From: an uncultured Alphaproteobacteria bacterium
Lineage (GTDB): Bacteria; Pseudomonadota; Alphaproteobacteria; Rs-D84
Direction of reading: 5' to 3'
DNA: 64,000 bases
Assembly (NCBI GenBank): GCA_905233975.1
Contig: CAJOGD010000006.1
Location: 19,609 to 83,608 of the forward strand
Under the pieces are notes generated by a model. It had not been told where the DNA came from. It saw only the letters and a program-made list of their open reading frames with translations, and made no database searches. The translations under genes were made by a program, and so were the position numbers. Of this stretch, positions 3,663 through 60,827 are shown piece after piece. How positions within the stretch are numbered: the first letter of the stretch is position 1; every line of letters begins with the position of its first letter.

Positions 3663-4826
3663 TTATTGATTCTGGGGGATATAGACGTTGGTGCTGACCT
3701 CTGGGCCGGCGGCAAAGTTTGTGTTGGCCGGAACACTGGGGAAGAAGCGCCGCGACACCGTATCATACATACCGACCTTGTTATCACTGTTTTGACGCGC
3801 GGGAAACCCGTTAAACACGAACGTCCCCGATGCATCTTTTATCCATATACGATACACCTTTGCAGAAATTTTTTGTCCGGCCACCCCCTCTATATTATTC
3901 GCAAATAAAAACATTCTTAATGTATTATCAGAAACTCTGGTTTGCGTAAAATTTTGTATGGTTCCATCAAAATCTATTGTAATATTATTTTCATTGTCAA
4001 TCGTTGTATGTATTGTATGTCTGGCGGTGGGATTTGTAAGGCTTATAGAACTATACGATGTTGAAGTTGAATTATACAACCTTAGAGCCCCGCCGGCGAA
4101 ATAGTATGTTTGCCGTAAATTATAGCTATTCGCATTTGATTGACACCCCATCAACGTCACATTACCCGCGTCGGTAGTTTTTTGGAAATCTATAAATACC
4201 TCACTTGCCAATTGGTCTAACACAACACCTGTATCAATATATTGATGCCCGTCGGATTCAATCCATTTTAATTCTGTATATCCGTCTGGCAAAGAATGTC
4301 CCGCTGCACCATTGTGGATTTCCCATAGCCAACAAGTACCGGTGACTGGTTGCCGGTTGTCGGAACATACGAATTCTCGGTCAAGACCATTTTTGAGTGC
4401 GGCGTTAAATGTTTTTGCGTCAATCAGGTTGTCGGATTGGTCGGCGTATGTGCCGGTTGTTTGATAAATTCCCTTTCGTCCGATTTGCCCGGCCGTTCCG
4501 GTGTAGGTGACGGCGGTGTGATCGTTAACCGCGGCGATGTCGTCCTGTTTTTGGTTTAACTTTGTATTCACACCACCAACCATGGGCAGCGATTCGGTAC
4601 CTCCGTTATCCAGGTCCGATGTGACGGCGCGTTTTTGAACATCGCCGGCCGCGTTGGTGTATTCCATGGCCTTGTTATTATCCGCGCCGAATTTATTCTG
4701 ACGCGTATCCAATTCATGTTCGACGTATTTCAACGACGTTGCGGTTTTCCGATCCGCCACTTCTTCCGCCACCGCCGGCAACGCCGCCGCAATTAACCCG
4801 AATAACAAAAACTTTTTCAATTGCAT
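3663..4826 (-). CDS. Secreted modular fibre/adhesin-like protein, paralog A (constant N-terminus + domain X + YIPQNQ)
   Basis: Signal peptide; about 170 aa near-identical to 50846..52351 and 59859..60827; 'LPDGYTELKWIESDGHQYIDTG...GMYDTV' domain. Confidence 0.8.
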   Translation of the reverse strand: MQLKKFLLFGLIAAALPAVAEEVADRKTATSLKYVEHELDTRQNKFGADNNKAMEYTNAAGDVQKRAVTSDLDNGGTESLPMVGGVNTKLNQKQDDIAAVNDHTAVTYTGTAGQIGRKGIYQTTGTYADQSDNLIDAKTFNAALKNGLDREFVCSDNRQPVTGTCWLWEIHNGAAGHSLPDGYTELKWIESDGHQYIDTGVVLDQLASEVFIDFQKTTDAGNVTLMGCQSNANSYNLRQTYYFAGGALRLYNSTSTSYSSISLTNPTARHTIHTTIDNENNITIDFDGTIQNFTQTRVSDNTLRMFLFANNIEGVAGQKISAKVYRIWIKDASGTFVFNGFPARQNSDNKVGMYDTVSRRFFPSVPANTNFAAGPEVSTNVYIPQNQ

Positions 4827-4861
4827 TTGACTCTCCTTGTTCCTTTCACTGGCCGCTAACA

Positions 4862-5050
4862 AAAACACCACCGAAAACGTGTGGTTGGAGGTTCAAGACA
4901 ATTTAAGGAAATTGTGTGCTTATTTTGACAGGCCCATTGGACCCACATTATTCGCATCCCTCCAACCAATTTTGGTTGGAGTTTTTGTCGATAACATGAC
5001 TCGACATCCTTAAACGGGTCTTGACACCCCATCGGCAGAATTCCCACCGA
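4862..5050 (-). ncRNA. Putative structured leader RNA, copy upstream of paralog A
   Basis: Minus strand GTGGGAA...GGGG; pairings tcaagac/gtcttga and tttaagga/tccttaaa; internal hairpins tgtcga/tcgaca and ctccaaccaa/ttggttggag. Confidence 0.55.
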
Positions 5051-5057
5051 CAAATCT

Positions 5058-5087
5058 ATTCTAACAAAAAACGAAAAGGTAAATCAA
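5058..5087 (-). promoter_or_regulatory. Sigma70 promoter with extended -10
   Basis: TTGATT-18 nt-TAGAAT with TG at the extended position. Confidence 0.6.
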
Positions 5088-5180
5088 GATAAAAGTGTTA
5101 GTGGTTAGTAGTCTCTAGAATTTGTTTGTAATTGTGAAATTATTCAAGATTCTACTAACCACTATCCACTTACACTAACA

Positions 5181-5438
5181 CTATTTTATCACTGCCGTTT
5201 TAATCAGTGTTAAATCTTCTTTGATGCCGTCGATTTTTAATTGTAATTGCCCTATTCCGGTTTCCAAAATGGTCGTCCGGTTTTCAAGTGTCGTTATGCG
5301 TGTCGTCAATCGGTCAAGTTCGACCAGTGCGTTATCTTGGCGGGCGGCCCAATATATAAGGCCCGCAATAAAGGCGATTAAAAACCAACCACTGCGCAGT
5401 GTGTCGATAATACCCATAAGGCCGTTAGACTTTGGCAT
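5181..5438 (-). CDS. Small membrane protein with coiled coil (phage lysis/haemolysin XhlA-like?)
   Basis: One TM helix followed by a heptad coiled coil; last gene of the virion operon. Confidence 0.5.
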   Translation of the reverse strand: MPKSNGLMGIIDTLRSGWFLIAFIAGLIYWAARQDNALVELDRLTTRITTLENRTTILETGIGQLQLKIDGIKEDLTLIKTAVIK

Positions 5439-5631
5439 TGTTACGCCCCCTTTCAATTAAAGTTTCAATTTGATGCACGATTGCGCGTGCGCCCTCCAGC
5501 GCGCGCAGTTCGCCGTCCGTCGCGTGTGGCCCCAGCACCCTTTCGATTGTTATCCGGCGCAGGTGTTCAATGACCGCCCGCCCGGACGCGCCCGCAAAAG
5601 TGCGGGCGTATTCGTGTGCGATTTTTTCCAT
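5425..5631 (-). CDS. Bbp19-like phage protein
   Basis: 'YARTFAGASGRAVIEHL...LEGARAIVHQI' is typical of the small gene following BPP-1-like portals. Confidence 0.65.
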   Translation of the reverse strand: MEKIAHEYARTFAGASGRAVIEHLRRITIERVLGPHATDGELRALEGARAIVHQIETLIERGRNNAKV

Positions 5632-5641
5632 ATGTGTCCCC

Positions 5642-6868
5642 CTATATCAATGTGCCGTTTTCCGCAACCATTTGCGCAATCGGCGCAATGTATTTTAATT
5701 CCGCGTCACTGTGCAGCGATATTTTGTCGATTACGCCACGCCGCGCAAGGATTTGCAATCCGCGGTCGCAAAGCGGTCTGATAAATTCGTGCAACAGTCG
5801 GCCATACGTCGCACCCAGTATGCGCAGCATGTCTGCGTTCCGCGCAAGTATTTCCGTCGCCGTCATTTCTTTGTCCGAAAGCGTGCCGATTCTGTCCGCA
5901 AGCATTGTGTGGCGGATGCGTTCGCGCAGGTCTTTTAGAATTATTTGCGACACATCAAAATTTGCACCCGTTGCAAGTGGCGTAAGGCCGGTACTGCCCA
6001 CCGCTTTGGGGATTATCGCACCGGGGGTAAGGTTTATGTTGCCAAGGTTTATGACGCCGTCATCGTCGGCCTGCCATATGCCACTGACCGCGATGGTTGC
6101 GTTTTTTAGGACAAGTTCGACGACCTTGTTCGCGGTTTTGATATCAGGTAGCGCCCGCAGCACCGGGCCGCGGCCGTACTGTTCGCCGCTTGCCAATGCC
6201 CAACGAAAGATGATGTATGGGTTCGTTTCGAATGTGCCACGTGACACGATATTATTTTCCAAATCGCCACCAACATCTATCCATGCGGTAAATTCCGTAT
6301 CGACCAATGCCTGAACCAGGCGCAATTGGTATTCCGGATTTTGCTTTATCGCGTCAAGGATTGCGCGTGGCGGCGTCCATTCGGGATAACGACGCGCAAT
6401 ATCTTGGGCACAAAGCGTTGCCGTATGAAAGACCGCGTTCGGCAAAATTGCAATATCTGACATTGGGATTGCGGTAAATGTAAATGCACTTGCCGCGCCA
6501 ATCGGCGATTCAGACATAAACAGACATGCCGTTCCCATCGTCACAAGATCCATATAGCATTGATGAATCGTCGTATAAAAATTCGATTCGTTCAGGTTTG
6601 AACGCAGTGCCATTGTCGCCGCAACCGCGTCCGGTGATTCATTTGATTCCGGCACAAGGTTCAGCCACAATGATTCCGGCGGTGTGAGTAATGAATACAT
6701 GCATGCCGCCAAATTATCCGCCGCGTCCGCCGCCGTTCCATCGAACAATGTTGCGATTTCTTCGTCGGTCGTTGGCATTGTATAGCGGCGCGCATCGGAC
6801 CAACGCTTTATCCATGGTTCGCGCAAGGCCAGCGCACGTGAATACATTTTTTGTAAGTCATATTTCAT
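5642..6868 (-). CDS. Phage portal (head-tail connector), T7/BPP-1-like
   Basis: 'LFDGTA', 'RW...GEQYGRGP...ALPDIKTAN', 'MTATEI..R' motifs. Confidence 0.9.
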   Translation of the reverse strand: MKYDLQKMYSRALALREPWIKRWSDARRYTMPTTDEEIATLFDGTAADAADNLAACMYSLLTPPESLWLNLVPESNESPDAVAATMALRSNLNESNFYTTIHQCYMDLVTMGTACLFMSESPIGAASAFTFTAIPMSDIAILPNAVFHTATLCAQDIARRYPEWTPPRAILDAIKQNPEYQLRLVQALVDTEFTAWIDVGGDLENNIVSRGTFETNPYIIFRWALASGEQYGRGPVLRALPDIKTANKVVELVLKNATIAVSGIWQADDDGVINLGNINLTPGAIIPKAVGSTGLTPLATGANFDVSQIILKDLRERIRHTMLADRIGTLSDKEMTATEILARNADMLRILGATYGRLLHEFIRPLCDRGLQILARRGVIDKISLHSDAELKYIAPIAQMVAENGTLI

Positions 6869-6883
6869 TTCTTTTCCTTTTGG

Positions 6884-7732
6884 TTAGAGTTTAAATTCTG
6901 TGTTCGCAATAAATTGGCGAACGTTTGTTCCAATTGGACGCATCGGCACAGATTGGCATAAAATTGCCCCGGCGACCGCGTCCAGCCCATCGTCATGTTC
7001 GCCGCCACCGTTCGGTGTCCATGCCAACATTTCTGAGATAAAAGGTGTTTGTGTTATGCGTCGATGCGCATAAAGGCGACCGGTCGTAAGCAACGGTTCA
7101 ATCGCGTCCAAAATTCTATCTTCTTTGCGGCGACTGTTGGTTATAGGGCGAATTTGTATTTCATAGCCCGCGTGCGCAATTGTGTCGCGCATTATTTCCG
7201 GCAACGCCGCACCGATTCCGTTTGTTTCCACGCAAAGCGTCCTTTGCCGGTGCATGCGCACAAACGAAAGCACATGTTCACACTGATATGCCAACGGGTA
7301 TTCTATGCCGTCCGGCACGACAAGATATGTTATATCGTGGATAAACACGCGGTGGCCACGATCGTCACGATAGGCAATAACGCAAACACTGTTGTCTGAA
7401 TTGCGTCGGCCGCCCGATGGGTCCCAATAAATTATTGCGCCTGTTATCGGGGTTTCGCCGATTCTGCATCCATGCGGGTCAAAATCATCGTCATAGAATT
7501 TGATTCCGCCTGGATCAAGACGGATTTTATCGGGCGCAACGAATTGCAACATCATTTGCGCCGAAAAATGTCTATCGCCGACAGTTTCCCTTATTTTTTC
7601 TATCCTTTCTATTGGAAAAACGGCCGGCCACGCGGAATTTCCGTCCACATCAACGATCGGTATTTTTAATTCCGAATAGCCCGATAAAAAAGGCGTTGAA
7701 AAAACATTTTTTTCGTATACTATGTTTGACAT
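6884..7732 (-). CDS. Terminase large subunit, C-terminal nuclease half
   Basis: 'AWP..F', 'FSAQMM', 'YWDPS', 'VETNG.G', 'KEDRI', 'HDDGLDAVAGA'; GGAG RBS about 9 nt upstream. Confidence 0.85.
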   Translation of the reverse strand: MSNIVYEKNVFSTPFLSGYSELKIPIVDVDGNSAWPAVFPIERIEKIRETVGDRHFSAQMMLQFVAPDKIRLDPGGIKFYDDDFDPHGCRIGETPITGAIIYWDPSGGRRNSDNSVCVIAYRDDRGHRVFIHDITYLVVPDGIEYPLAYQCEHVLSFVRMHRQRTLCVETNGIGAALPEIMRDTIAHAGYEIQIRPITNSRRKEDRILDAIEPLLTTGRLYAHRRITQTPFISEMLAWTPNGGGEHDDGLDAVAGAILCQSVPMRPIGTNVRQFIANTEFKL

Positions 7733-9272
7733 GGACTTTACTCCCAAAACTTTACCAACGAATTTAGAGGCCGAACAGGCCGTATTGGCCGCGGTATTGA
7801 TGAAAAACCGGGCACTTGAAAAAATTTCTGAATTCTTGCGGCCCGAAGATTTTTCACACCCCGCGCACCAAGAAATTTATAAACTTGCCCTACGCCAGTT
7901 CGCGGCCGGGATTCCGTTTGATATAATCACCGCGAAAACATACCTTGACCAACAGGGAACTTTAGAATCGGTCGGTGGTGTAGAATACCTTAGTCAGTTG
8001 GCAAGTGCCGGCGCAACCGTTGTAAATGTTGAACAGTATGGCCGTATCGTACATGAAAACGCCGTTCGACGTGAATTGATTGACTTTGGCCAATCAATTA
8101 CAGATGCCGCATTTGTTGAAGACCTTGATAATCCGGTGTCCGCACAAATTGAAGCGGCGGAACAAAAACTTTTCAACCTTGCCATGACCGGGGACACAAC
8201 GCGCGATGTTGTCCCGATTGCGAACGCGTTAAAAGATGCATTGGCCGAGGCAGAGATCGCATACAAGGCCGACGGAAAACTTTCCGGGCTTACCACCGGG
8301 CTTACCGATTTAGATCGCGCAATAAGTGGCATGCACAAATCTAATTTACTAATTATTGCCGGACGCCCGGGTATGGGAAAAACCGCACTTGCCATGAACA
8401 TCGCGTTCAATGCGGCAAATGCAATTTATTCTGGGCGCGCGAACGAACAGTATAAGGGTGCCGTTGCATTTTTCAGTTTGGAAATGGGCGCGTCTGAATT
8501 GGCCGCACGTGTTTTATCGTCCCAATCCAGAATTTCCGCATCGGCAATGCGCGAAGGGTCGCTTACCGATGAAGATTTCCTTAAAATGGCCCAGTTTTCC
8601 GACGCAATCGGACGAATCCCGTTGTTTATTGATGATACGCCGGGCATGTCTTTGCCAATGATTCGCACGCGTGTGCGGCGTCTTGCGCGAAAATATAATG
8701 GCATCGCGTTAATCGTTATCGACTATTTACAATTGTTGACATCGCCGGGCGGCAAAAACAAAGATAATCGTGTTCAGGAATTATCCGAAATTACACGCGG
8801 CCTTAAAATGATGGCCAAGGAATTCAATGTCCCGGTTATCGCACTATCGCAATTATCGCGCAGTGTTGAAAGTCGCGATGACAAGCGTCCACAACTTGCG
8901 GATTTACGTGAATCGGGGTCTATTGAACAAGATGCCGACATTGTTATGTTCACTTATCGTGAAGAATATTATTTGCAAAATCGCGATCCGTCGCGGCGGC
9001 TTTCTAATACCCCGAATGAAAAGTCTGTTGATTCGTGGCAAAATCGTCTTGAAAAGGCCAAAGGCAAGGCAGACATTATCATCGGCAAGAATCGTCATGG
9101 TCGAACAGATACAATTAACGTCGCCTTTTTGGCAGAGTATAGTTTATTCGACAACCTTAATGAAATGGCCAACCGCGTTCCAGAATTTGCACCGGACACG
9201 CCGGCCCAATCTGAACCCGGGGATATACCAACACCAATTGATATTGATGCAATCCCAGATGATTTTGAATAA
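7731..9272 (+). CDS. dnaB: Replicative DNA helicase DnaB
   Basis: EAEQAVL, Walker A GRPGMGKT, FSLEM, IDYLQL, LSQLSR, DLRESGSIEQDAD. Confidence 0.95.
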   Translation: MDFTPKTLPTNLEAEQAVLAAVLMKNRALEKISEFLRPEDFSHPAHQEIYKLALRQFAAGIPFDIITAKTYLDQQGTLESVGGVEYLSQLASAGATVVNVEQYGRIVHENAVRRELIDFGQSITDAAFVEDLDNPVSAQIEAAEQKLFNLAMTGDTTRDVVPIANALKDALAEAEIAYKADGKLSGLTTGLTDLDRAISGMHKSNLLIIAGRPGMGKTALAMNIAFNAANAIYSGRANEQYKGAVAFFSLEMGASELAARVLSSQSRISASAMREGSLTDEDFLKMAQFSDAIGRIPLFIDDTPGMSLPMIRTRVRRLARKYNGIALIVIDYLQLLTSPGGKNKDNRVQELSEITRGLKMMAKEFNVPVIALSQLSRSVESRDDKRPQLADLRESGSIEQDADIVMFTYREEYYLQNRDPSRRLSNTPNEKSVDSWQNRLEKAKGKADIIIGKNRHGRTDTINVAFLAEYSLFDNLNEMANRVPEFAPDTPAQSEPGDIPTPIDIDAIPDDFE

Positions 9273-9366
9273 GTGACCACTAACACTCGCCACTATTCAC
9301 TTTTTACTTGCTATGGTTTAAAAAATTCCTTATCCTTTTGTCAAGGTTTATACCAAGGAGTGTCTT

Positions 9367-10374
9367 ATGGCCCTAGAAGAAATTATATTTCCCAATAATA
9401 TTCGTAATATCAGATTGGCGGCGGGTATGAAAATGACCGAACTTGCGCGACGGTCTAATTTATCTTTGTCCGCTGTGTCCAAGATAGAAAAAGGTGTCCG
9501 GCGCCTTAATCAAAAGCAATTACTTAATATTTGCAAAATCTTGGGCTGTAAATTGTCCGATATTTTCATCAAGGATACTGACGAGGTTGCATCAAAATGG
9601 CAAGATGAAATCACACGCCGTATGAATGATAACGAAGATGGCGGGCTAAAGATTTTTGGTAGTGGTTTGCGCAAAATACGTCAGCAATCCGGCAAAACCA
9701 TTGCCCAGGCGGCAAAAGACGCCGGCATGACACTATCGGTGTATCATAAAATAGAAGTCGGCCAGCGCGAGGTCTATAAAAACGAAATCGAACCATTGGC
9801 TCAATCTTTCGCGCATTCTGTGGAAAGTTTGTTCAATAAAATTGCCGAACTTTACAAATCTGGCGAACTGACCAAACAAATGAACAAGGTCAAAGAAGGC
9901 GTCAAGGCCGTTTTGGTACCGGGTGGAACCGATGATTTGGACGACGTACATGGCCATTTGTACAGTGCAAAACTTTATGATAACGCACGCAAAAAATTGG
10001 TTCCGGTATTTGGAAAGCCCGAAGGCAAAGCGATTGCTTTTGCGAAATCGGATTCAAATATGATTGTTGCACCGGCTAATCTCGAAGGCCGTCGTGATGT
10101 GTATGCAATCATACCTAACTCTAAACGTTTGGGCGGCTTTATACCCGAAAACTCTTATGTCTTCGCTGATATCAAGGCGGCGGTGGCCCCCGGGGATTTG
10201 GCGGTCTTTATTGATACAGACTTTAATTCCCTTAAATCAGAAGAAGCCGTTGTTGCAAATATTGCCATTGTGCGTAAAGATGCCAAAGGCAAAATTTATG
10301 GTCAAATGGTATCTCCGGACGAAAAGATTTCTGCCCAAACTATGCACAAGGTAATAATGTTTATCAACGAATAG
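9367..10374 (+). CDS. XRE-family regulator with two HTH domains and a degenerate S24-like C-terminus
   Basis: Two Cro/C1 HTHs ('ELARRSNLSLSAVSKIEKG' and 'AAKDAGMTLSVYHKIEVG') and a 'VPVFG...YAI...PGDLAV' tail. Confidence 0.8.
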   Translation: MALEEIIFPNNIRNIRLAAGMKMTELARRSNLSLSAVSKIEKGVRRLNQKQLLNICKILGCKLSDIFIKDTDEVASKWQDEITRRMNDNEDGGLKIFGSGLRKIRQQSGKTIAQAAKDAGMTLSVYHKIEVGQREVYKNEIEPLAQSFAHSVESLFNKIAELYKSGELTKQMNKVKEGVKAVLVPGGTDDLDDVHGHLYSAKLYDNARKKLVPVFGKPEGKAIAFAKSDSNMIVAPANLEGRRDVYAIIPNSKRLGGFIPENSYVFADIKAAVAPGDLAVFIDTDFNSLKSEEAVVANIAIVRKDAKGKIYGQMVSPDEKISAQTMHKVIMFINE

Positions 10375-10398
10375 ACAACCAAGGAGGGGGCAAACATC

Positions 10399-11052
10399 AT
10401 GAAGCCAAAGGCAAGTGTCGTTGCACAAAAACTTTTGAACCTGTACCGCCAGGCGCACGTTATTGTTGGCGGCTGGTCGGCGGTTAATCGTGTTTTTGTT
10501 GATGAAGCCACCGATGATGTTTTGCATGAATTAAAGGATTTGCCGACCGGTAAAATGTTGGCCGAACATATTGCCAACCTGCGATCGGGGGCAACACCTA
10601 TGGATTCTATCGCGCACGAATTATTGCCATATGGGGGGCTTATGGCCGAATCTTTGGCAACGGCAAGCATTGATGAATCCGAATTACAACAGTTAATTGC
10701 CGCCGTCGATGCGTTTAGCCCAGATTCTGATGGATTAAAGAATTTTATGGATACGGCAATAATAAAAAAATTCGGGGACGATTGGATTACAATGGCGCAA
10801 AACGCATTGATGGCAAGCCCCGATGCACTGCGGAAATTTGATGATATTGTTCGTATTTCTACGGCATATCGTTTGTGGGATGAAGCAAATGCGATACTGG
10901 CCGCCCCGGCCACAGATCGCGTTCGTGCCCATCTACAGGTGGATATGCCGGAATACGAAACATACCTGCCGATGTTTGGTGACGAAGGCAAAGAGTTGTT
11001 GCATCGTTTGCATGGGTTAACAAGTTCTATGCCATCGCACGATGCGGCTTAG
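10399..11052 (+). CDS. Hypothetical protein
   Basis: 217 aa ORF with AAGGAGG RBS; stop overlaps the terminase N-half stop. Confidence 0.75.
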   Translation: MKPKASVVAQKLLNLYRQAHVIVGGWSAVNRVFVDEATDDVLHELKDLPTGKMLAEHIANLRSGATPMDSIAHELLPYGGLMAESLATASIDESELQQLIAAVDAFSPDSDGLKNFMDTAIIKKFGDDWITMAQNALMASPDALRKFDDIVRISTAYRLWDEANAILAAPATDRVRAHLQVDMPEYETYLPMFGDEGKELLHRLHGLTSSMPSHDAA

Positions 11053-11642
11053 GCCGTTTTGTATATCGTGTCCAATGTATGCGGGGTACCGATATATATC
11101 ATCGTGCCGTTTGGTGATAGTATAAAATCAAGTTCCCTTAATCTTTCCCGCAAAATTTGCCTCTTCTTGATTGTATTAGATGTGTTTGGCACCTCTACAT
11201 CATCGCATATTATTAAATCCGCACGCATTCCGGTTATGTTTCCATATATGCCCTGGCATACAACTGATGGTTCGCGAATCCCAAGTGGTCTATTTATGGT
11301 AATTTTGTTTTCCGCCCATTCACGTTTATTCTTTGGAATCATTCCGGCACACCATGGATGATTTTCAAGAATATGACGTATATGCATAACCATTCTTGTT
11401 GCCAAATGTGTTTCCGCAGATAAAATCAGAATACGCGTTTCTGGGCGCAAAAACAAAACACATGCGGCAAAAATTCCAACAATCGTTGATTTCCCCGAAT
11501 GCCGGAACGCCATAAGCAGACCACGATGCGAATCGCCGTTTATTACATCAACAAGGAAATTCGTCATTTGATAGTGATGCAACGGCGTTTTATACCCCAA
11601 CACATTGTTCCAAGCCTCTAAAAATTCGTTATACTGATTCAT
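11049..11642 (-). CDS. Terminase large subunit, N-terminal ATPase half
   Basis: Walker A 'AFRHSGKST', Walker B 'ADLIICDDVE', coupling motif 'YIGTPH', followed by a stop. Confidence 0.85.
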   Translation of the reverse strand: MNQYNEFLEAWNNVLGYKTPLHHYQMTNFLVDVINGDSHRGLLMAFRHSGKSTIVGIFAACVLFLRPETRILILSAETHLATRMVMHIRHILENHPWCAGMIPKNKREWAENKITINRPLGIREPSVVCQGIYGNITGMRADLIICDDVEVPNTSNTIKKRQILRERLRELDFILSPNGTMIYIGTPHTLDTIYKTA

Positions 11643-11650
11643 TGTATAAA

Positions 11651-11995
11651 TTAAATTAATTTATCAAGGTGTTCCAAAATCGATGTCAGCATATTTTTTT
11701 TCTTGGTTGTGATACCCGCCAATTTATTTAGGTTCGCACGTTTTTTGTTTTCATACGGTGTTTCGGTTTCGTCCTTTATACGCGCCAACACGTTTTTTTC
11801 GGTAAGTCCATTATTCGACATACCCGACGCCCCATATTTTGCACGTTGCGCCCCCAGAACTTTCTTTACAATATTGCGCTTTTCTGCATCATCTGCGGCA
11901 ATTTCCGCGATGATTTTGTTTTTATTTTTTTCGGCGGTATTTTTATTTTCTTGATAGTTTAAAATATCCGTCACATCTGAAAGAATTTGTCCCAT
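11651..11995 (-). CDS. Putative internal virion protein
   Basis: 'GAQRAKYGASG' motif; position after tail tubular B as in podoviruses. Confidence 0.55.
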   Translation of the reverse strand: MGQILSDVTDILNYQENKNTAEKNKNKIIAEIAADDAEKRNIVKKVLGAQRAKYGASGMSNNGLTEKNVLARIKDETETPYENKKRANLNKLAGITTKKKNMLTSILEHLDKLI

Positions 11996-12009
11996 TTTAT
12001 ACTCCATTT

Positions 12010-13716
12010 TTAAATTTGATATCTTCCGTATGTCGTCACCGATAAGATTTTCAGTGGCAAACTGTCTGTTGTTGAAATTGTCCATGGTGCGTCTATTAAA
12101 TCCGCACTTGTGCCAAGAACATTGACCGACACATCACCGTCAAAGCCATCGGAATCATCAGAATAAATATCATTAGGTAAAACCCCGCGTTCGTCATTTA
12201 TAAATAATGTTTTGGTATTATAAACACGCACAGTTATTTTCGTAATCCTGATGTATTTTGCATTATGCCCCGATGTTAAAAGCGGCATTCCCTTTGCTGT
12301 TGCGGTATATGCATAATTTGTGGCATCAACAAATTCCGAATCATCGAAATATTCAAGGAAAAAGTCATCGCCACGTTTAACCACAACAAATGTTTTTCCA
12401 TCACATACGGCCACAGATTTAAATTCGCCATTTGTGGTATAACGTCCCCACGCTGATATTCCTTGGGCCACATCATAGTTCAAAACAGCCATATTTCCCG
12501 CAGACATCACAACAAAAAGTTTTTTGGTGTTTTTGTTATATGCGATGTCAATCGGTTCGGTTATCAGGTGTTTTGATAAATCGCACAAATTATTTGCGTT
12601 ATAATTTTCGCCCATTTCATCAAGCCCAAGTTGGCGAATATCTGGTCCAACCTTGGAAACAAATATTGTTTTGCCTTCCATTTGTTGTGGCGGCAAATAT
12701 TTATCTGCGATACTGCCCATAGAAGTGTGCATTTTTATATCCACAGATTCCGGCGTTAGTGGCTTATTCGAAACCGCCCATTCGCCTTCGGACGTAAGTA
12801 TTTGCAAATTGTCACTGCTGACCAATGTGCATACATGCTGTCTGCGATCAGATAACAGTGTAAAAAATATCGCCTCGTCATCTAAACCTGTTCCAAGGTT
12901 GAAATTTTTATGCTGGCCTACGTGCGACATCCATATTCCGCCCGGCCATGATTTGGCACCACCAAAGACAAGTCTATCTTGGTGAAATGTTATTGCCGAT
13001 GGCCAACCACGCCGCGGGCTAAATACGGCCTCTTGCCAATCTGACACCGGATCATTCGGCAAAGTATATGCGCCGTTGCATGTGGCGATTACTTCGGTTG
13101 GACTTACATATGTATTAACCAACCAACTTTTGCCAATGGCAAATAAATGTCCCCCAACATTATCCGCGGTCCAAAAATTTTCATTGGTTGTAAAATGGAC
13201 TTTACCGTCAGAATACGTAATGGTTATTGTTATGCCTTCGGAATCTTCGAATCGCATAAACGGTATTTCAACATTATGCGTATCCGATGAAACGGAAAAT
13301 GCGAAATACCTGATTTTAAACACACCGTTTTCATAATAAAAAATTCTTGGGGCATAATCTGGGTGCACAAATATCATCGTTCCGAATCGCTGGGCATACC
13401 GAATCTTGGGTATATCTGAACTGGTCCAAGGCGTTAACACATCTTGGACAAAGGTACCGTTTGAAAACACCCTGATGCGACCATTCATAATGGCCAATAT
13501 ATATTCTTCGGTTTCTGATACAGAAAAAGCGACCAGTCTTGCATTCGCCAGCAGTTGCGGCCCATTCTTTAATCCGGCCCTGCGAACAAGTCCGCCACCA
13601 CTGCACACATCAAAATTTTCCATATATGCAAGTCCATGAATATTTTCATTTTCGACAAAATTTATTGAAACTTCACCGTCTGCGAAAGATTTCTGTGTTT
13701 TTATAAAATTCACCAT
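12010..13716 (-). CDS. Tail tubular protein B (nozzle)-like
   Basis: 'SFADGEVS', 'GGLVRRAG', 'WPSAITFHQDRLVFGG' motifs. Confidence 0.85.
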   Translation of the reverse strand: MVNFIKTQKSFADGEVSINFVENENIHGLAYMENFDVCSGGGLVRRAGLKNGPQLLANARLVAFSVSETEEYILAIMNGRIRVFSNGTFVQDVLTPWTSSDIPKIRYAQRFGTMIFVHPDYAPRIFYYENGVFKIRYFAFSVSSDTHNVEIPFMRFEDSEGITITITYSDGKVHFTTNENFWTADNVGGHLFAIGKSWLVNTYVSPTEVIATCNGAYTLPNDPVSDWQEAVFSPRRGWPSAITFHQDRLVFGGAKSWPGGIWMSHVGQHKNFNLGTGLDDEAIFFTLLSDRRQHVCTLVSSDNLQILTSEGEWAVSNKPLTPESVDIKMHTSMGSIADKYLPPQQMEGKTIFVSKVGPDIRQLGLDEMGENYNANNLCDLSKHLITEPIDIAYNKNTKKLFVVMSAGNMAVLNYDVAQGISAWGRYTTNGEFKSVAVCDGKTFVVVKRGDDFFLEYFDDSEFVDATNYAYTATAKGMPLLTSGHNAKYIRITKITVRVYNTKTLFINDERGVLPNDIYSDDSDGFDGDVSVNVLGTSADLIDAPWTISTTDSLPLKILSVTTYGRYQI

Positions 13717-13738
13717 TTTAAAATCTCCCTTGGCTGTG

Positions 13739-14260
13739 TTAGAAACGACTATCTATCAATGAAAAATTTTCTATTCCGGTATTCACAGATGTTGTGCTGT
13801 CTATGAATTTTGCAGTTTGTAATTCATTTTCATAAAGCGCCACCAGTGTTTTAAACACCGTTTGGTCAGAAATAAGTGGCATACAAAATTCCACTGCAAG
13901 TTTTGTCGCAACCAGTGACGCAAAATAACTTGGGAATTCATTCGGTATTACGCGAACTATTGCGGTTATGGTTAATGTATCCGCACCTGACACAATTTTA
14001 TTTTCCATCAATCGACCGTTGGTTTTGATAACCCTTAACACATCAGATGGTATTACAAAGTCGCCGTTTCCATCGCGTGTCAACGTATATGTGCGACATG
14101 CAAAACGCCAAGGATGCATTGCCAACAATGTATCTATTACAAAGTCAACAAACGTCCGCCCAAGTTTTGCCGCCGCGGTATCATCTGACAATGATTGAAT
14201 TGGATTTTCACCCAATTTCAACAATGCCATTGAACACAAATCTATTTTCGTTAGCATCAT
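13739..14260 (-). CDS. Tail tubular protein A (adaptor)-like
   Basis: 'IDLCSMALLKLGENPIQSL', 'HPWRFA', 'FASLVATKLAVE'. Confidence 0.85.
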   Translation of the reverse strand: MMLTKIDLCSMALLKLGENPIQSLSDDTAAAKLGRTFVDFVIDTLLAMHPWRFACRTYTLTRDGNGDFVIPSDVLRVIKTNGRLMENKIVSGADTLTITAIVRVIPNEFPSYFASLVATKLAVEFCMPLISDQTVFKTLVALYENELQTAKFIDSTTSVNTGIENFSLIDSRF

Positions 14261-14274
14261 TTTCCCCTTATTCT

Positions 14275-14314
14275 AAAAAAATCACAGGGGGCGAAATATC
14301 CGCCCCCTTTTTTA
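14275..14314. terminator. Intrinsic terminator after the capsid/decoration genes
   Basis: agggggcg-aaatatc-cgcccct hairpin flanked by A and T tracts. Confidence 0.65.
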
Positions 14315-50502: not shown

Positions 50503-50596
50503 TGGCGGATGGTGAGGGATTTGAACCCCCGAAGGTCTTATTTCATACCTTGTCCGATTTCAAGTCGGATGCATTCAACCGCTCTGCCAACCATCC
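50503..50596 (-). tRNA. tRNA-Ser(TGA)
   Basis: ggatggttggcagagcgg...tccgacTTGAaatcgga, long variable arm, GGTTCAAATCC, 3' GCCA. Confidence 0.92.
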
Positions 50597-50691: not shown

Positions 50692-50832
50692 CGCCGTCAT
50701 ACCGCGCTATCGGGCCCCACAAAAAACGTGCAACGTTTTTTGTGGGTGATTTCACGCGGTATCTCGTCAGTGTTGCAGAGCGTAAACTCCCCTTCGCCCG
50801 GGGAGATTCCGCGTCAAGCGCGGAATGACGGG
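50692..50832. repeat. CGTC-type REP dimer (REPIN-like) with a nested hairpin insertion
   Basis: gccgtcataccgcg...cgcggtatctc...gagattccgcgtcaagcgcggaatgacgg. Confidence 0.75.
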
Positions 50833-50845
50833 CCGCTAATTACCG

Positions 50846-52351
50846 TTATTGATTCTGGGGGATATAGATTATATTGTTAATATCCGGCCCGGCGGTAAGA
50901 GCCGATTCTGATAAAAATGTATTATTAACCGAGTCATATAGACCAATAGAATTATCAGAATTCTTCCTTGCCGGTATATAATTTCGAACTAACACATCGT
51001 TATCATATACTTTCATCTCATAGAAATTACCGCTAAACCTAGGGGTACCTGTTGAGCCGTTGCTATTACCGATCGTCAACGTCCTTGAACAAGTGAATGT
51101 TCCCACATTTGTGTATGGTACCAAATTTCCATTAAAGTTAAATCCATGTTTATCCTGTACCAATTCGTTGATCACATTGGGAACTATCCCTGTTCCAGTC
51201 ACTGTAACATTACCAAATCGTTCGTTCCCTGTTGCTATAAGATAGCAAGTTATTCGTGGATTTGAAGTGCCGGTTCCATAAACCCAAGAGCCGTTCGTCG
51301 TTCCCATAAATTTTGAAACAATTTTTGTGTCCTGATTTGGGGTAAAACCTGTATCTAATTCTTGGGCCCCATTAAAAGTTATATACTCCACCGGTGTGTA
51401 GTCAGATGGGACAAGGGTGGTGTATGGGGCTTCCTGATATGCCGTTGCGGTCGAACCTTTTTCTATTTGAATTGTGTTTAAGGTACTGTTAAATATTGCA
51501 CTATTGGTTTGAACAACGATCCATTTTGCTGTCGCCGGTGTTGTAAATGTATATGTGCCGGGATTCGTTGTTTCACGATGTATAAAGCTGTATGGTATGT
51601 TGGTTTGGTCGGTGGTGGTTGGTAATGTGGGGGTATCTATTGTTGCAAACCTGTATATGCTGCCACCATCGGTAAAACCGGAAACGGTGTATGTCGTGTT
51701 CGGCTCGCATGGGCACGCCAAAGATTTTGAGCCATTTGCATAATACCAATATCCGTCCATAGTTGCGGCAAGGCTTCTGTTTCTAAATATCCAAGAATTA
51801 TTTGTTTTATCGAATAAATTGCGACTTTCACCATTATTATGTATTGAGTAGACCCAGCAAAGATCTGTGCCGGGTTTGTATTCTGAACAAAGGAATTCGC
51901 TATCAAGTCCTTTCTTTAATGCGGCGTTGAATGTTTTTGCGTCGATAAGGTTGTTGCTTTGTTCAATGTACGTGCCGGTGTCTTGGTAAATACCCTTGGC
52001 GCCGATTTTCCCGGTCGTGCCAGTGTAGGTGACGGCGGTATGGTCGTTGATTGGGGCGATGTCATCCTGTTTTGTGGCAAGTTTAGTATTCACACCACCA
52101 ACCATGGGAAGTGACGTGTCGGACGTGCTGGACCCCAGGTTCGATGTGACGGCACGTTTTTGCACCGTTCCGGCCGAATCGGTATATTCCATGGCTTTGT
52201 TTTGTTCCGCTGTAAATTTATCCTGACGCGTGTCAAGTTCGTGCGTCACGTATTTCAATGATGTCGCGGTTTTCCGGTCCGCGGCTTCCTCCGCCACCGC
52301 CGGCAGCACCGCCGCCATCAACCCGAACAACAAAAACTTTTTCAACTGCAT
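50846..52351 (-). CDS. Secreted modular fibre/adhesin-like protein, paralog B (constant + domain Y + domain X + YIPQNQ)
   Basis: Same N-terminus as paralogs A and C; 'NLFDK...QIEKGSTATAY' then 'DYTPVEYITFNGAQELDTG...GLYDSV'. Confidence 0.85.
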   Translation of the reverse strand: MQLKKFLLFGLMAAVLPAVAEEAADRKTATSLKYVTHELDTRQDKFTAEQNKAMEYTDSAGTVQKRAVTSNLGSSTSDTSLPMVGGVNTKLATKQDDIAPINDHTAVTYTGTTGKIGAKGIYQDTGTYIEQSNNLIDAKTFNAALKKGLDSEFLCSEYKPGTDLCWVYSIHNNGESRNLFDKTNNSWIFRNRSLAATMDGYWYYANGSKSLACPCEPNTTYTVSGFTDGGSIYRFATIDTPTLPTTTDQTNIPYSFIHRETTNPGTYTFTTPATAKWIVVQTNSAIFNSTLNTIQIEKGSTATAYQEAPYTTLVPSDYTPVEYITFNGAQELDTGFTPNQDTKIVSKFMGTTNGSWVYGTGTSNPRITCYLIATGNERFGNVTVTGTGIVPNVINELVQDKHGFNFNGNLVPYTNVGTFTCSRTLTIGNSNGSTGTPRFSGNFYEMKVYDNDVLVRNYIPARKNSDNSIGLYDSVNNTFLSESALTAGPDINNIIYIPQNQ

Positions 52352-52475
52352 GTTATACTCTCCTTTCGCTTTTTACCACTACCCCGCCACTCCTCGTGGT
52401 CCTCCCCTTCGGTTATCACCCACAAAATTTTTCAAATTTTGCGGGACCCGATTGTGCGAAGGGGAATAAAAACTA

Positions 52476-52690
52476 CCGCGGTGAAAACCAAGCGGCCGGG
52501 GTGTTAGCAAATCATAACAGCGTTGATCCCAATGGCTTTCGGCGAACCTATTGTATTACCATCGGCACCCCGAACCATATCGTTCGGGGGGATTTAACGA
52601 TGCAAAAGCAAGGAAATCACAATGGATAACGATGCTATGCACCGGCTGTTATGGGCCTGCTAGAGCCCCGAACCAAGTTCCCACTTAGTT
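52476..52690 (-). ncRNA. Putative structured leader RNA, copy upstream of paralog B
   Basis: agtgggaacttggttcgggg...tagca/tgcta, cataacagc/gctgttatg...acaccccggccgcttggttttcaccgcgg; promoter TTGACG-18-TATGAT at 52699-52728. Confidence 0.7.
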
Positions 52691-55788: not shown

Positions 55789-58119
55789 ATGGCGAGCATA
55801 GATGGTTTTTTAACAACTTATTTTAAACAGTTGCACTTTAATTCGATGTCGCCAGAGGTGCGCGCGCGTTGGGAAGAGTATATGAAACTTCCCGATTTAA
55901 ACTGGTCTATGAAGGACTGGCGGCGCGAACTTATGCACGAAACCGCGCCAGACAGCGGCGAATACGTCAATTTTGATTTACCTAGTATCAAAGAAGGCGA
56001 AAATACGGCGCGTGTTGATGCAGGCCTTAAAGACCCCGGTTTAACGGACGATCAGATTAAAGATTTATACAAATATATGAATGCGGCCGTCAGTGGAATG
56101 GCGGAAGATAAAAAAATCAATAATGCTGAATTCAAGACTGCGAAAGACTTTGTTAATGACTTTTACGGTACTTTTGAAGTTGGCGAACCACCTGTTTCAC
56201 ATACGAATATATTCAATATTATTAAAGTTTCTTCGCCAACAAAAACTACATTGGAAGATATTATCAGACTGCCAAATGGCGCGTTGCACATTTTGAAAGC
56301 CCCTGTTGAAAGGGCGCTTGAACAAATATCTGGCGAAAAAAAATTAACTTTTGATAAACTTATCGAAAAAATACAAAAAGGCGATTATGATAAAGACAGC
56401 GCGTTCAGAGAACAATTAATCAAATTGTTTGAAAACATAGAGAATTTCGCGCCATACAGCTGGTTAGATTATACGCCCGATGGTGGTGCGACCTATCCAA
56501 ACAAGACAAATTTATATCAGTTTACAGGAACTTTACGCGACAGCCTGGTTGAAGGATTGAAACCCGAACCGTCTGATGACGTAATAGAACGTTTTAAACG
56601 CGGTTATGGTAATGTTTTTGAACGTATCTATAAAAAACCAAAGGTCAAAGCACTTTTTGCAGAACATGACGACAATGGTATTATTGCCGCGTTAGATGCT
56701 GCGCGCAATGCTGTTAATTATGACGTTCCGGATCAACCGAATTATCTTTATCCCAAAACAGAAAAACATCTAAATGCCCCCCAACGTATAAAAAAGGCAA
56801 TAGACGATTTTTATGAAAATAATCTTGAAAAATATTTTAACAATCTTGGAGGCGACAGATTATTTAAGTCCAAACCTGCACGCGATATTGTAAAAGGAAT
56901 CAACAAAGCAAAAATTAAACGTACTGGTGGTTTAGATGAAATATTAACCAATTCTGACAAAATTAAAAAGGAAATAGAACACGAATCCACAAGTACCGGG
57001 TCACATTTTGAATGGTTCCTTAAAGAAATGAAAGTTATCAAGGATGCCGATGACAAGGCTTTTGAGGCTTGTTTGCGTAATGGTGTATCTTTGCGTGGTG
57101 TTGTGCAAAGAGTGATTATGGACGCAGTTAGTGCCGGAAAAGTCGCAGAAGCAAAAACCGCGCTTGAAATTTTATCTGTTATGAAATATGAAAACACCAC
57201 AAGTAAAACATTGGACGCAATAAAAGAAGATAAGGATTTATTCAAATATTTCTCTAATCTAGAGCTTGCAAAGAAGAACGAGGGCACCAAGTTTGTTGCA
57301 GAAGCCATGGATAAAACCATGCGCATTGGCGGTATCGCCATCGCAACAATGGCCACTGTTGCCGTCAATACCGTTCGCAAATTGGGCAGCAAGATTCGCA
57401 AAGAAAACAAAGACCTCAACGCAGCACATAATGCCAAGAAAGCAGAAAACGAACGAGATAAAACAGAATTGCAAAATAAAATCGAGGATAACAGAAGAAA
57501 CGAAGCTCAAAAACAACGAGAAAAAGAAGCTGTAATATCAAGGTACGGCGACGAGGATACAATTAACAATAAATTAAATGAAAAAAAGACTTATAAAGAC
57601 CGTTTGACGTCTTATCTTAAAACAGAACTTGACAATATGGAAGCTTTTAAAAACAGGACTGGCGCCACAGATGATGAAGTCAATGCATATGACACATTTG
57701 TACAATGGTACGAGAAATACATGAATGATGGCACCGCTATACCAGATGCTGTTTATGATGCTATGCCGGATACAATGAAAGTATATACAGATAAAATCAA
57801 AAGACTTTTACGCGCATATCCCGCTGTTAATGATCACTTGACCCAAGCCCAAGAAACAAAGAAAATTTTTGATGAGGCTTCAAATGCATTGACTGTTGCC
57901 AGTGACGAATTAGCTGCAAATCAAAAAAAACTGGATAGTTGGGATACAGATCACAAAGATAAGTATGATGAACTTATTAAATATTGGAATGAGTTGGAAT
58001 TTGGACGCGATATGCACCTTGGACGTGTCTTTGGCGGTATGTATAGCAGATTTGGCAACAAGAAAACCCAACAAGAAAAGTATTTCGCAAAGTTTAACAA
58101 TGGAATACCGTCCAGATAA
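55789..58119 (+). CDS. Large helical/coiled-coil hypothetical protein
   Basis: AAGGAG RBS; K/E-rich; one hydrophobic segment; followed by a terminator. Confidence 0.75.
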   Translation: MASIDGFLTTYFKQLHFNSMSPEVRARWEEYMKLPDLNWSMKDWRRELMHETAPDSGEYVNFDLPSIKEGENTARVDAGLKDPGLTDDQIKDLYKYMNAAVSGMAEDKKINNAEFKTAKDFVNDFYGTFEVGEPPVSHTNIFNIIKVSSPTKTTLEDIIRLPNGALHILKAPVERALEQISGEKKLTFDKLIEKIQKGDYDKDSAFREQLIKLFENIENFAPYSWLDYTPDGGATYPNKTNLYQFTGTLRDSLVEGLKPEPSDDVIERFKRGYGNVFERIYKKPKVKALFAEHDDNGIIAALDAARNAVNYDVPDQPNYLYPKTEKHLNAPQRIKKAIDDFYENNLEKYFNNLGGDRLFKSKPARDIVKGINKAKIKRTGGLDEILTNSDKIKKEIEHESTSTGSHFEWFLKEMKVIKDADDKAFEACLRNGVSLRGVVQRVIMDAVSAGKVAEAKTALEILSVMKYENTTSKTLDAIKEDKDLFKYFSNLELAKKNEGTKFVAEAMDKTMRIGGIAIATMATVAVNTVRKLGSKIRKENKDLNAAHNAKKAENERDKTELQNKIEDNRRNEAQKQREKEAVISRYGDEDTINNKLNEKKTYKDRLTSYLKTELDNMEAFKNRTGATDDEVNAYDTFVQWYEKYMNDGTAIPDAVYDAMPDTMKVYTDKIKRLLRAYPAVNDHLTQAQETKKIFDEASNALTVASDELAANQKKLDSWDTDHKDKYDELIKYWNELEFGRDMHLGRVFGGMYSRFGNKKTQQEKYFAKFNNGIPSR

Positions 58120-59461: not shown

Positions 59462-59464
59462 TAA

Positions 59465-59503
59465 ATAGTGTAAGTGATTAGTGTTAGTGATTAGTGTTAG
59501 TGC
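59465..59503 (+). repeat. Degenerate 6-7 nt tandem repeats (TTAGTG-based)
   Basis: tagtgtaagtgattagtgttagtgattagtgttagtg; similar runs at 3522, 5095, 5153, 9277 and 59812. Confidence 0.65.
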
Positions 59504-59587
59504 GCGGGGCTTTTGTCCCGCGTTTTTCATTTTTCAAAAAAATGTTCTTGATTAAATTCAATCAAATTTGTTAAAATAAAAACTGAA

Positions 59588-59803
59588 CTGAGTGGGAACT
59601 TGGTTCGGGGTCGTCGTAGGCCCACAGTAAAGGCGACAAAACTGTCGTATCCGCACAGTGTGTGGCGCCTTGGGCGTCTTTTATTGTGCATACCCCGACT
59701 TTGGTCGGGGTGCTGTTGGATATAAAACAGGTTTACCGAAGTCCTGCAGGATCATGCTTTACTGTGATTTACGAACACCCCGACCGCTTGGTTTCCACCG
59801 CGG
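59588..59803 (+). ncRNA. Putative structured leader RNA, copy upstream of paralog C
   Basis: agtgggaacttggttcgggg...tcgta/tacga, cacagtaaag/ctttactgtg...acaccccgaccgcttggtttccaccgcgg; promoter TTGATT-18-TAAAAT at 59548-59577. Confidence 0.7.
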
Positions 59804-59858
59804 CATTTATTTTAGTGTAAGTGTTAGTGCAAGTGGTTAGTGAAAAAAGGGGAGGAAA

Positions 59859-60827
59859 ATGTTTTTGAAAAAGTTTTTATTGTTCGGGTTGATTGCGGCA
59901 GTGTTGCCGGCGTTCGCCGAAGAAGTGGCGGACCGGAAAACGGCAACGTCGCTTAAATACGTCACACACGAATTGGATACGCGTCAGAATAAATTCGGCG
60001 CGGACACTAACAAAGCCATGGAATATACAAATTCGGCCGGAACGGTGCAAAAACGTGCGGTCACATCGGAACTGGGGTCCAGCACGTCCGACACATCACT
60101 GCCCATGGTTGGAGGTGTGAACACGAAACTTGATTTGAAACAGGACGATATTGACCCCGTAAACGACCACACCGCCGTCACATATACTGGAACGGCCGGC
60201 GGTATCGGGCGGAAAGGAATTTATCAAACAACCGGCACATACACCGATCAAAGCGACAACCTTATCGACGCAAAAACATTTAATGCCGCATTAAAGAAAG
60301 GACTTGATATTGAATTCAAGTGCAAGGAAACCAAACCCGGCACAGACCTTTGTTGGGTTTATTCGATACATAATGAAACCGAAGAAAAAACAAAAAATTT
60401 ATTAAACCCATCATTTATGGACAATTCAACATATGAAACGGTGACGGTAAACGGCGTAACGATTGATCGTGCAAAAATATTGCCAACGGAAAACGGGAAA
60501 ACATATACATTATCCGCAACATTGATTGCCAATGATGGGGGGACATATTTTTACTATCTGGCTGAGATTTTCCCAGATGGCACCTATAGCAGTCAATCCC
60601 AGCTTCCTTGCCACTACATGTGGACTAATTACACCAGCGCAAACACTAACACAACCGTTGAAAAAACATGCACATTTACCACACACGATAATGCGACATA
60701 TTTGGTGAATTTTGCTAATTCATCGTCTGTAGATTATCTAACATTAACAAATTATCAAATGGAAGAAGGTGCGACCGCAACGCCATACGTTCCGTACGGC
60801 AACGTTTATATCCCGCAAAATCAATGA
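59859..60827 (+). CDS. Secreted modular fibre/adhesin-like protein, paralog C (constant + domain Y + YIPQNQ)
   Basis: Same N-terminus; 'KNLLNP...YQMEEGATATPYVPY' then NVYIPQNQ. Confidence 0.85.
   Translation: MFLKKFLLFGLIAAVLPAFAEEVADRKTATSLKYVTHELDTRQNKFGADTNKAMEYTNSAGTVQKRAVTSELGSSTSDTSLPMVGGVNTKLDLKQDDIDPVNDHTAVTYTGTAGGIGRKGIYQTTGTYTDQSDNLIDAKTFNAALKKGLDIEFKCKETKPGTDLCWVYSIHNETEEKTKNLLNPSFMDNSTYETVTVNGVTIDRAKILPTENGKTYTLSATLIANDGGTYFYYLAEIFPDGTYSSQSQLPCHYMWTNYTSANTNTTVEKTCTFTTHDNATYLVNFANSSSVDYLTLTNYQMEEGATATPYVPYGNVYIPQNQ

Follow-up and report, generated by a model that had tools for sequence, protein, structure and literature searches.

Which proteins keep both of their ends and replace much of what lies between them? 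The question is raised by a 64,000-nucleotide (nt) stretch of DNA from an uncultured alphaproteobacterium of the Rs-D84 lineage (GenBank assembly GCA_905233975.1, contig CAJOGD010000006.1, positions 19,609 to 83,608 of the forward strand), hereafter the window. Three of its genes, here called paralogs A, B, and C, encode a signal peptide, a conserved N-terminal domain, a variable part built from modules named X and Y, and a short common C-terminal end. The best explanation, to which a probability of about 0.6 is given, is that they belong to a family of Sec-exported homotrimeric fibres with a fixed stalk and exchangeable tips, probably used for attachment to partner cells. The trimer model with its C-terminal clamp, the ratios of nonsynonymous to synonymous divergence (dN/dS), the phage tail context of module X, the test of synteny against a neighbouring virion cluster, and a recent module rearrangement are new here.

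A multigene family of exported modular proteins

The three open reading frames (ORFs) are present as a preliminary description of this DNA had placed them, and ORF reading together with alignments bears out their signal peptides, their common YIPQNQ end, and the module layout, which is X in A, Y followed by X in B, and Y in C. The N-terminal ~172 amino acids (aa), closing at the motif CW..IHN, are 71% identical between A and B, 80% between A and C, and about 85% between B and C, so that the shared part stands as described, whereas the near-identity claimed for some 170 residues is better called good conservation. After CW..IHN the sequences diverge: the X modules of A (residues 179-387) and B (314-501) are 29% identical (E = 2e-15), and the Y modules of B (residues ~175-310) and C (~175-313) fall within one 58%-identical alignment, until all three proteins close on (V/I)YIPQNQ. 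The variable parts are also AT-richer, as had been noted, with a GC content of 0.39-0.42 in the C-terminal parts of A, B, and C versus 0.48-0.51 in their N-terminal parts; across all 48 full-length paralogs of the genome, the values are 0.430 and 0.476.

The grouping into a family of three is true for the window alone. In the whole assembly (1.04 Mb in 11 contigs, 94.8% complete), tblastn with B gave 98 matches, and an ORF scan found 49 ORFs with a whole N domain, 48 of full length and one cut by a contig end, besides about a dozen pieces that are fragmentary, frameshifted, split, or located at contig ends. The 48 intact genes sum to 56,727 nt, or 5.5% of the genome, and the family proteins range from 316 to 572 aa. 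Because the contigs of the assembly often start or stop inside family genes, these copy numbers are lower bounds. Such contig ends are the start of C1, both ends of C2, the ends of C3 and C7, C8, C9, and C10 (both ends), and the end of C11, and the same is seen in related metagenome-assembled genomes (MAGs).

Classified by their C-terminal part, 20 copies carry X, 12 carry a third module type, Z, which occurs in none of A, B, and C, nine carry Y+X, six carry Y, and one is an odd Y-like copy. Outside the variable part the family is uniform. A signal peptide of the n-h-c type, read by eye as M.LKKFL..FGL...A.A followed by EE, is found in 48/48 paralogs, two cysteines are present in the N domain of 47 of the 48, and every copy ends in [VIL]Y[IV][PL]Q[NGED]Q plus zero to two residues. 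The 150-aa N domains of the paralogs are 74-92% identical to that of B.

All database relatives that carry a source name are hypothetical proteins from MAGs of Alphaproteobacteria. When 185,579 species genomes were scanned for the pattern, 43 loci were recovered in six MAGs, which bear the titles uncultured proteobacterium, Alphaproteobacteria bacterium, or Candidatus Enterousia sp. At E <= 1e-5, 24 congeners and 16 further genomes of the order gave no match to the N domain, and a wider draw at E <= 1e-3 detected it in 24 of 200 other species of the genus, often in multiple copies and at 30-60% identity. From these searches, the family is limited to part of one genus and expanded there. A, B, and C are thus members of a lineage-specific multigene family of exported modular proteins.

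Trimer model and relatives of the modules

When mature C was modelled as three copies, the interaction prediction score from aligned errors (ipSAE) was 0.78 (0.78, 0.77, and 0.79 in the individual runs) versus 0.00 for the best of three controls, with a partner predicted local distance difference test (pLDDT) of at least 82 and at least 95% of contacts agreeing between runs. The interface is almost wholly that of the N domain (residues ~28-170), and since same-numbered residues of different chains touch (81, 87, 94, 107, and 135), the model predicts an intertwined stalk around a three-fold axis. Residues 311-318, located just before and within the conserved tail, contact residues 166-170 and 178 of other chains, and the C-terminal strand is accordingly placed by the model so that it packs back on the N domain of the predicted homotrimer. 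Both flanks of the variable part would then be conserved because they are the two halves of one structural socket.

Under the explanation favoured here, the N domain (residues ~21-172, with its two conserved cysteines) would form the three-fold stalk and presumably hold the fibre on or near the cell envelope, and the beta-rich modules X, Y, Z, or Y+X would be the distal ligand-binding tip. The invariant C-terminal strand (..VYIPQNQ) would fold back and clamp onto the stalk end of the neighbouring chains. A module seated in this way between two fixed elements could be exchanged without disturbing assembly.

The relatives of module X point toward phage tails. A whole-protein search with B in a representative library gave 7348 proteins at E <= 1e-3, and among the 150 matches listed most align through the X part, often in 2-11 tandem stretches within proteins of 1000-2900 aa; three of 20 such X-bearing proteins that were scanned have additional domains, Flg_new or leucine-rich repeats (LRR) of the BspA type. 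Architectures among 250 fetched proteins include NX, NY, NYX, NXX, NYY, and NXY. A profile scan of IMG/VR with X found 81 relatives in 76 viral loci, and of the 12 loci examined, at least 9 have the X-bearing ORF inside a tail module and three are unclear. Typical neighbours of this ORF are the tape measure, tail proteins, a tail fibre, a fibre-assembly protein, and an endolysin, and one viral X-bearing ORF itself matches a tail-fibre PHROG. In the Atlas, module X has a feature score of 0.97 and a template modelling (TM) score of 0.82-0.87 to clusters that are unnamed and for the most part viral; among named superfamilies, ConA-like lectin/Laminin_G_3 (0.92-0.93) comes nearest, but it shares just 106-112 of 256 features and is a lead only, and X has no Pfam match to PF13385.

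For module Y, two of six copies match NCBIfam NF048003, a head spike fibre domain of gene transfer agents (GTAs) and phages, over ~113 residues (best E = 6.7e-7), sharing with it the terminal Q.E.G..aT.Y strand. Y also matches 25 loci in viral contigs, mostly over part of its length, and its profile gives weak carbohydrate-binding-module matches in the PDB (E = 0.026-0.27). An hhalign comparison of X with an alignment of NF048003-type domains gives 0.2%. Sequence and profile searches of the PDB found none for B or X and nothing meaningful for Z, and nothing real came from Pfam for Y or from PHROGs for Z. Module Z has 68 matches in longer proteins of related MAGs and was not found in the viral contigs scanned. 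The likeness to phage tails is well supported for X, weakly supported for Y, and not supported at all for Z. Both X and Y had earlier been likened to carbohydrate-binding modules of phage tails: the tail-module context holds for X, the resemblance of Y stays below the NF048003 threshold, and binding of carbohydrates by X, Y, and Z may be envisaged. The broader proposal, that these are exported modular proteins and probably adhesins or receptor-binding proteins, agrees with the signal peptides, the module scheme, and the occurrence of X in phage tail modules.

Several observations weigh against the explanation of exported trimeric fibres. The trimer expresses the model's own confidence, and the job, with three copies and a custom alignment, was unlike the calibration, in which 20 of 30 proteins with a solved pair structure and 1 of 23 with a solved single-chain structure attained the ipSAE mark. 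The AlphaFold2 (AF2) monomer of B is poor (mean pLDDT 51, and ~30 in the N domain); Y and X are all-beta in it, with pLDDT up to 90 in X, and it was used for secondary structure alone. A, B, and C have no meaningful Pfam or PHROG match, the hits (E = 0.04-0.3) being chance-like, and tblastn with Y+X and with Z gave no match in 50,697 GenBank phages. The best score of Y against NF048003, 30 bits, is below the curated cut-off of 36, and hhalign of Y with an alignment of true NF048003 domains returns 2%; lectin-like folds are unproven for X, Y, and Z. Neither an outer-membrane route nor an anchor was identified, and the signal peptide shows export across the inner membrane only.

The last point leads to a different explanation, in which the proteins are soluble, secreted or periplasmic, and lectin-like or scavenging, and capture glycans or nutrients for a metabolically poor cell instead of acting as cell-attached fibres. 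Beyond the signal peptide, the family proteins have no lipobox, transmembrane anchor, or known sorting signal; they are small and lack a long stalk, and the genome is rich in paralogs of binding proteins, such as the eight Peripla_BP_6 genes of the window. A predicted intertwined trimer with stalk and clamp is typical of fibres, not of solute-binding proteins, and X co-occurs with surface-protein repeats and phage tail genes. A soluble scavenging role is accordingly regarded as unlikely.

Selection and mosaicism among the paralogs

Over 1128 paralog pairs, the N domain has a median dN of 0.12, a median dS of 0.91, and a median dN/dS of 0.13, and the C-terminal parts are 29-56% identical at the protein level, with dS saturated. 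Because dS is ~0.9 and dN/dS is 0.13, the copies are old, and the N domain has been kept by protein-level selection, not by recent homogenisation. On the tree of N-domain DNA, the type of the C-terminal part needs 14 changes (minimum 4; mean of shuffled trees 24.4; 0/200 shuffles as low), and on well-supported branches one Z gene groups with A, another groups with an X gene, and a Z gene falls among the Y+X genes. In view of these 14 changes and mixed branches, the two halves of the genes co-diverge just in part. Recombination is likewise detected within the N-domain alignment by the pairwise homoplasy index (PHI) test, with 1.401 observed versus 1.458 +/- 0.014 and 0/1000 permutations as low; the longest exact runs between paralogs reach 94 nt (median 29) and have changing partners. 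Co-divergence of constant and variable parts without mosaicism is therefore not the case.

The tree of X modules is star-like except for one tight group, consisting of two Y+X genes and an X-only gene just outside the window. Within X, the X-only gene and one of the Y+X genes have in common a tract of ~270 nt at 93-100% identity; the second Y+X gene matches this tract at ~80-100%, and identity in the adjoining stretches is 50-80%. From this group and its tract, it follows that gain or loss of whole modules and segmental conversion within modules have both occurred. Judged from the alignments and trees, the mosaicism is real and includes at least one rearrangement of modules that is recent. Tracts of conversion are short, lie inside modules as well, and are not bounded by the conserved flanks, of which the 3' flank is seven codons long. 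The cassette shuffling by recombination between conserved flanks that was first proposed is hence retained as far as mosaicism goes, whereas a flank-bounded mechanism finds no place beside short tracts within modules and an N-terminal part kept by purifying selection. No dedicated shuffling machinery is suggested, and this is not a programmed cassette system. The repertoire of 48 genes would instead have grown by duplication, fast divergence of the tips, gain and loss of whole modules, and short-tract gene conversion.

The identity of A and B across the stop codon, first put at ~45 nt and measured here at 47 nt, was considered as proof of recombination and rejected. It runs from the last codons across the stop codon into the first part of a hairpin repeat resembling repetitive extragenic palindromic (REP) elements; the same junction of stop codon and hairpin recurs in a third paralog outside the window, and a REP-like repeat directly follows the stop codon in many paralogs. 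Because conserved last codons adjoin a widespread repeat, the identity is not by itself a recombination scar. Runs of the hexamers TTAGTG/TAAGTG, together with REP-like palindromes (CGTCATACCGC...GCGGTATGACG), adjoin the start or stop codons of many paralogs. A gene for tRNA-Ser(TGA) lies 250 nt downstream of B.

The unique parts of B and C are covered, at ~96-98% and ~94% likeness respectively, by contigs of a related strain (four runs of a single study), which are too short for gene order or module exchange. In 4/4 of these runs, 114 nt within the Y module of C are replaced by 102 other letters between flanks of about 94% likeness. Among the runs listed, none was of RNA.

Interparalog gene conversion shapes certain dispersed multigene families of surface proteins, such as msp2/p44 of Anaplasma and tpr of Treponema. 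The family described here resembles them in its conserved and hypervariable regions and in its short conversion tracts among many paralogs, but it has no layout of expression site and pseudogene cassettes, and all copies look independently expressible. Antigenic variation from silent cassettes was rejected: none of the 48 copies is truncated, each has a start codon, a ribosome-binding site, and a signal peptide of its own, and most have their own leader RNA as well. More generally, the proteins could form a coat under antigenic or phase variation, the exposed surface being varied to escape immunity, phages, or grazers rather than to bind ligands. A large dispersed family of surface type with a conserved anchor part and hypervariable exposed parts, the interparalog gene conversion, and the ~100-nt segment replaced inside the Y module of C in a related strain would all suit such a coat. 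It is nevertheless judged improbable, as all copies are complete genes without a single expression site served by silent cassettes, the paralogs are old (dS ~0.9) and their conversion tracts short, no invertible promoter or simple-sequence switch was seen in the upstream regions read, and the modules are of the binding-domain type found in phage tails.

Shared leader RNA, analogous systems and genomic surroundings

Of the 49 genes whose N domain is whole, 24 have a conserved motif within 600 nt upstream, and 24 of its 36 genome-wide hits are located there. It belongs to a leader element of about 130 nt, in which an 8-bp closing helix and two internal hairpins make up a three-way junction and a terminator-like hairpin carries a U run. 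An upstream C-rich segment could alternatively pair with the G-rich strand of the closing helix, and helix P2 shows several compensatory pair types across 28 leader copies. A covariance model, R1, was trained on 15 copies and run on the window and on 15 loci kept out of the training. Four new copies scored strongly (76-117 bits), a second variant gave six weak matches over the full length (16-27 bits), and six loci had no match. The leader is thus present in 24/30 paralog loci and precedes 3/3 genes of the window (Table 1). A scan of the window with Rfam at gathering score gave two tRNA matches alone and none for the leader. A structured leader with a terminator-like hairpin, shared by most genes, suggests common regulation, and it is a candidate for a new class of regulatory RNA.

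Table 1. Positions of the paralogs, their parts, and other features, counted from the first letter of the window
Feature	Position	Strand	Remark
Paralog A	3663-4826	-	387 aa
A, signal peptide	4767-4826	-	
A, N domain	4311-4766	-	
A, module X	3687-4310	-	
A, VYIPQNQ tail	3666-3686	-	
A, stop codon	3663-3665	-	
Paralog B	50846-52351	-	501 aa
B, signal peptide	52292-52351	-	
B, N domain	51836-52291	-	
B, module Y	~51416-51835	-	
B, module X	~50870-51415	-	
B, IYIPQNQ tail	50849-50869	-	
Paralog C	59859-60827	+	322 aa
C, signal peptide	59859-59918	+	
C, N domain	59919-60374	+	
C, module Y	60375-60803	+	
C, VYIPQNQ tail	60804-60824	+	
Identical nt of A and B	3639-3685 and 50822-50868	-	47 nt
Leader upstream of A	4858-4991	-	divergent variant 2, GGTTGGAGG...CCTCCAACC replacing GGGGTG...CACCCC; full-length R1 match, 18.5 bits, E 0.0015
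Leader upstream of B	52466-52604	-	three-way junction and terminator-like hairpin; copy in R1 training set
Leader upstream of C	59679-59813	+	copy in R1 training set
Hexamer runs and REP-like palindromes (examples)	59815-59850 and 3560-3660		
tRNA-Ser(TGA)	50503-50596	-	
Segment replaced in a related strain	60525-60640		within module Y of C
T7-like structural cluster	5181-17333		
Large terminase in two ORFs	6884-7747 and 11049-11642	-	ATPase half, nuclease half
Genes between the terminase halves	7722-11052	+	
Eight paralogous Peripla_BP_6 (LivJ-like) genes	38821-49075	-	within one branched-chain amino-acid type ATP-binding cassette (ABC) transporter operon
ORF of 793 aa	55738-58119	+	low-GC stretch (0.374)
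Stretch almost uncovered by related-strain contigs	55944-57863		

By architecture and modelled trimer, the closest functional analogue would be the mosaic adhesive trimer (MAT) family of Bdellovibrio bacteriovorus, which, according to Caulton et al. 2024, comprises 21 genes encoding a signal peptide, a conserved N domain of ~130 aa, and a trimeric fibre with mosaic tips, the fibres being surface-exposed and recognising prey glycans (PMC10769870). Both families have an N domain (~130-150 aa) without known relatives immediately after the signal peptide, a trimeric fibre (predicted in the present case), mosaic C-terminal tips of the phage or adhesin type, and a multi-copy repertoire (21 MAT genes versus 48 here) in a bacterium dependent on contact with other cells, as is proposed for the present one. 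Set against the MAT proteins, the present proteins differ in their size (316-572 aa versus roughly 1000 aa) and in lacking a long beta-prism stalk. The S74 chaperone-protease family was likewise not found in a Pfam scan of A, B, and C (one chance-level hit; the other 45 paralogs were outside the scan). The C-terminal YIPQNQ clamp strand and the shared leader RNA are, in the same comparison, specific to this family, and the host is a reduced-genome gut alphaproteobacterium, not a known predator.

An obligately symbiotic or parasitic life has been proposed for Candidatus Enterousia, or Rs-D84 (PMC12306168). The word "adhesin" is absent from PMC12306168, and no account of the family was met in the Enterousia literature checked, an absence that is weakly shown, part of that literature being unchecked. 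For exported fibres of a bacterium of ~1 Mb that is thought to depend on other cells, the likely role would be attachment to the varied surface glycans or epitopes of partner or host cells. A bolder form of this idea, which is doubtful and offered as speculation, is that other gut microbes are the hosts or prey of Candidatus Enterousia as an epibiont, with some 50 fibres as its host-recognition apparatus, in which acquired phage receptor-binding domains sit on one self-assembling trimeric socket (N stalk and YIPQNQ clamp) under a shared sensing leader RNA; the fibres switched on would then determine which partners can be bound.

The Rs-D84 bacteria are reduced-genome gut bacteria abundant in livestock; to our knowledge, they have never been cultured. 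A family that occupies 5.5% of the genome and encodes predicted trimeric fibres with phage-tail-type tips would be the most obvious handle on what these cells attach to, and recombinant tips could be used as probes for partner organisms or glycans. The socket of stalk and clamp would be a second, apparently independent case, after the Bdellovibrio MAT fibres, of a bacterium that employs the phage-fibre design for cell-cell recognition, with a trimeric stalk and swappable tips, of which X is a domain in common with phage tail genes.

The preliminary description had considered a possible link between paralog A and an adjoining virion operon. This T7-like structural cluster comprises genes for a scaffold, a capsid, tail tubular proteins A and B, an internal virion protein, a terminase, a portal, and a small coiled-coil protein, and it is without replication or RNA polymerase genes. 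The portal gene is single-copy in 24/24 congeners at 72-84% identity (in two assemblies it is split or accompanied by a weak second hit) and occurs in 12/16 genomes from elsewhere in the order; synteny extends over the entire cluster in 4/4 congeners examined. Being conserved and syntenic in congeners, the cluster looks vertically inherited and domesticated, and its podovirus-type particle is perhaps a GTA-like one. At the position of A, downstream of the small post-portal gene, the closest congener has a 256-nt spacer before yraN, another has two glycosyltransferase-like genes, and another has recG. Because this position is empty or otherwise occupied in 3/3 congeners inspected, A is read as a species-specific insertion beside the cluster. 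Given this insertion and the signal peptide that every copy carries, A is unlikely to be a fibre of the particle. The proposed link is thus rejected, the cluster being kept in congeners in which the N domain was not found.

If the proteins were nonetheless interchangeable tail fibres or receptor-binding proteins of the T7-like particle, they would be docked to the tail by the N domain, and their range of targets would depend on the modules. The location of A, 355 nt downstream of the small post-portal gene, would fit, as would the lack of a recognisable fibre gene in the cluster, the nature of X as a phage tail-module domain, and the weak phage-fibre look-alikes of the N domain (feature score 0.77-0.78, TM 0.25-0.30). 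PF03906, the N-terminal tail-attachment domain of T7-type fibres, was not found in the genome, which is weak evidence, given that the PF03906 control matched in none of the control genomes. Likewise, the family resembles phage tail fibres in its trimeric shaft (here predicted), its swappable tip, its recombination mosaicism, and the presence of X in tail-gene modules of uncultivated phages, but its genes are dispersed over the chromosome outside the virion gene cluster, encode Sec signal peptides, and have no PHROG or GenBank-phage match at the thresholds used. A Sec signal peptide on 48/48 copies is unfit for particle assembly in the cytoplasm, and 47/48 copies lie away from the cluster. The N domain occurs in 0/40 of the congener and order genomes mentioned above and in 24/200 species of the genus, whereas the cluster is conserved. 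PF03906, the lack of a signal peptide, and a conserved position, by which a T7-type fibre would be recognised, are not found in this family. A particle-fibre role is thus considered highly improbable, and Sec-exported fibres with exchangeable tips are preferred.

Within the cluster, the large terminase is divided between two ORFs, one for the ATPase half and one for the nuclease half. They are separated by about 3.3 kb, where dnaB, a helix-turn-helix (HTH) regulator, and an unknown gene lie on the opposite strand. The split arrangement is the same in 4/4 congeners, and in two genomes of another family of the order the halves are separate with the portal gene between them. Elsewhere in the window, a 793-aa ORF without a Pfam match lies in a low-GC stretch, most of which is almost uncovered by related-strain contigs that cover both flanks, and this region may be a strain-specific island.

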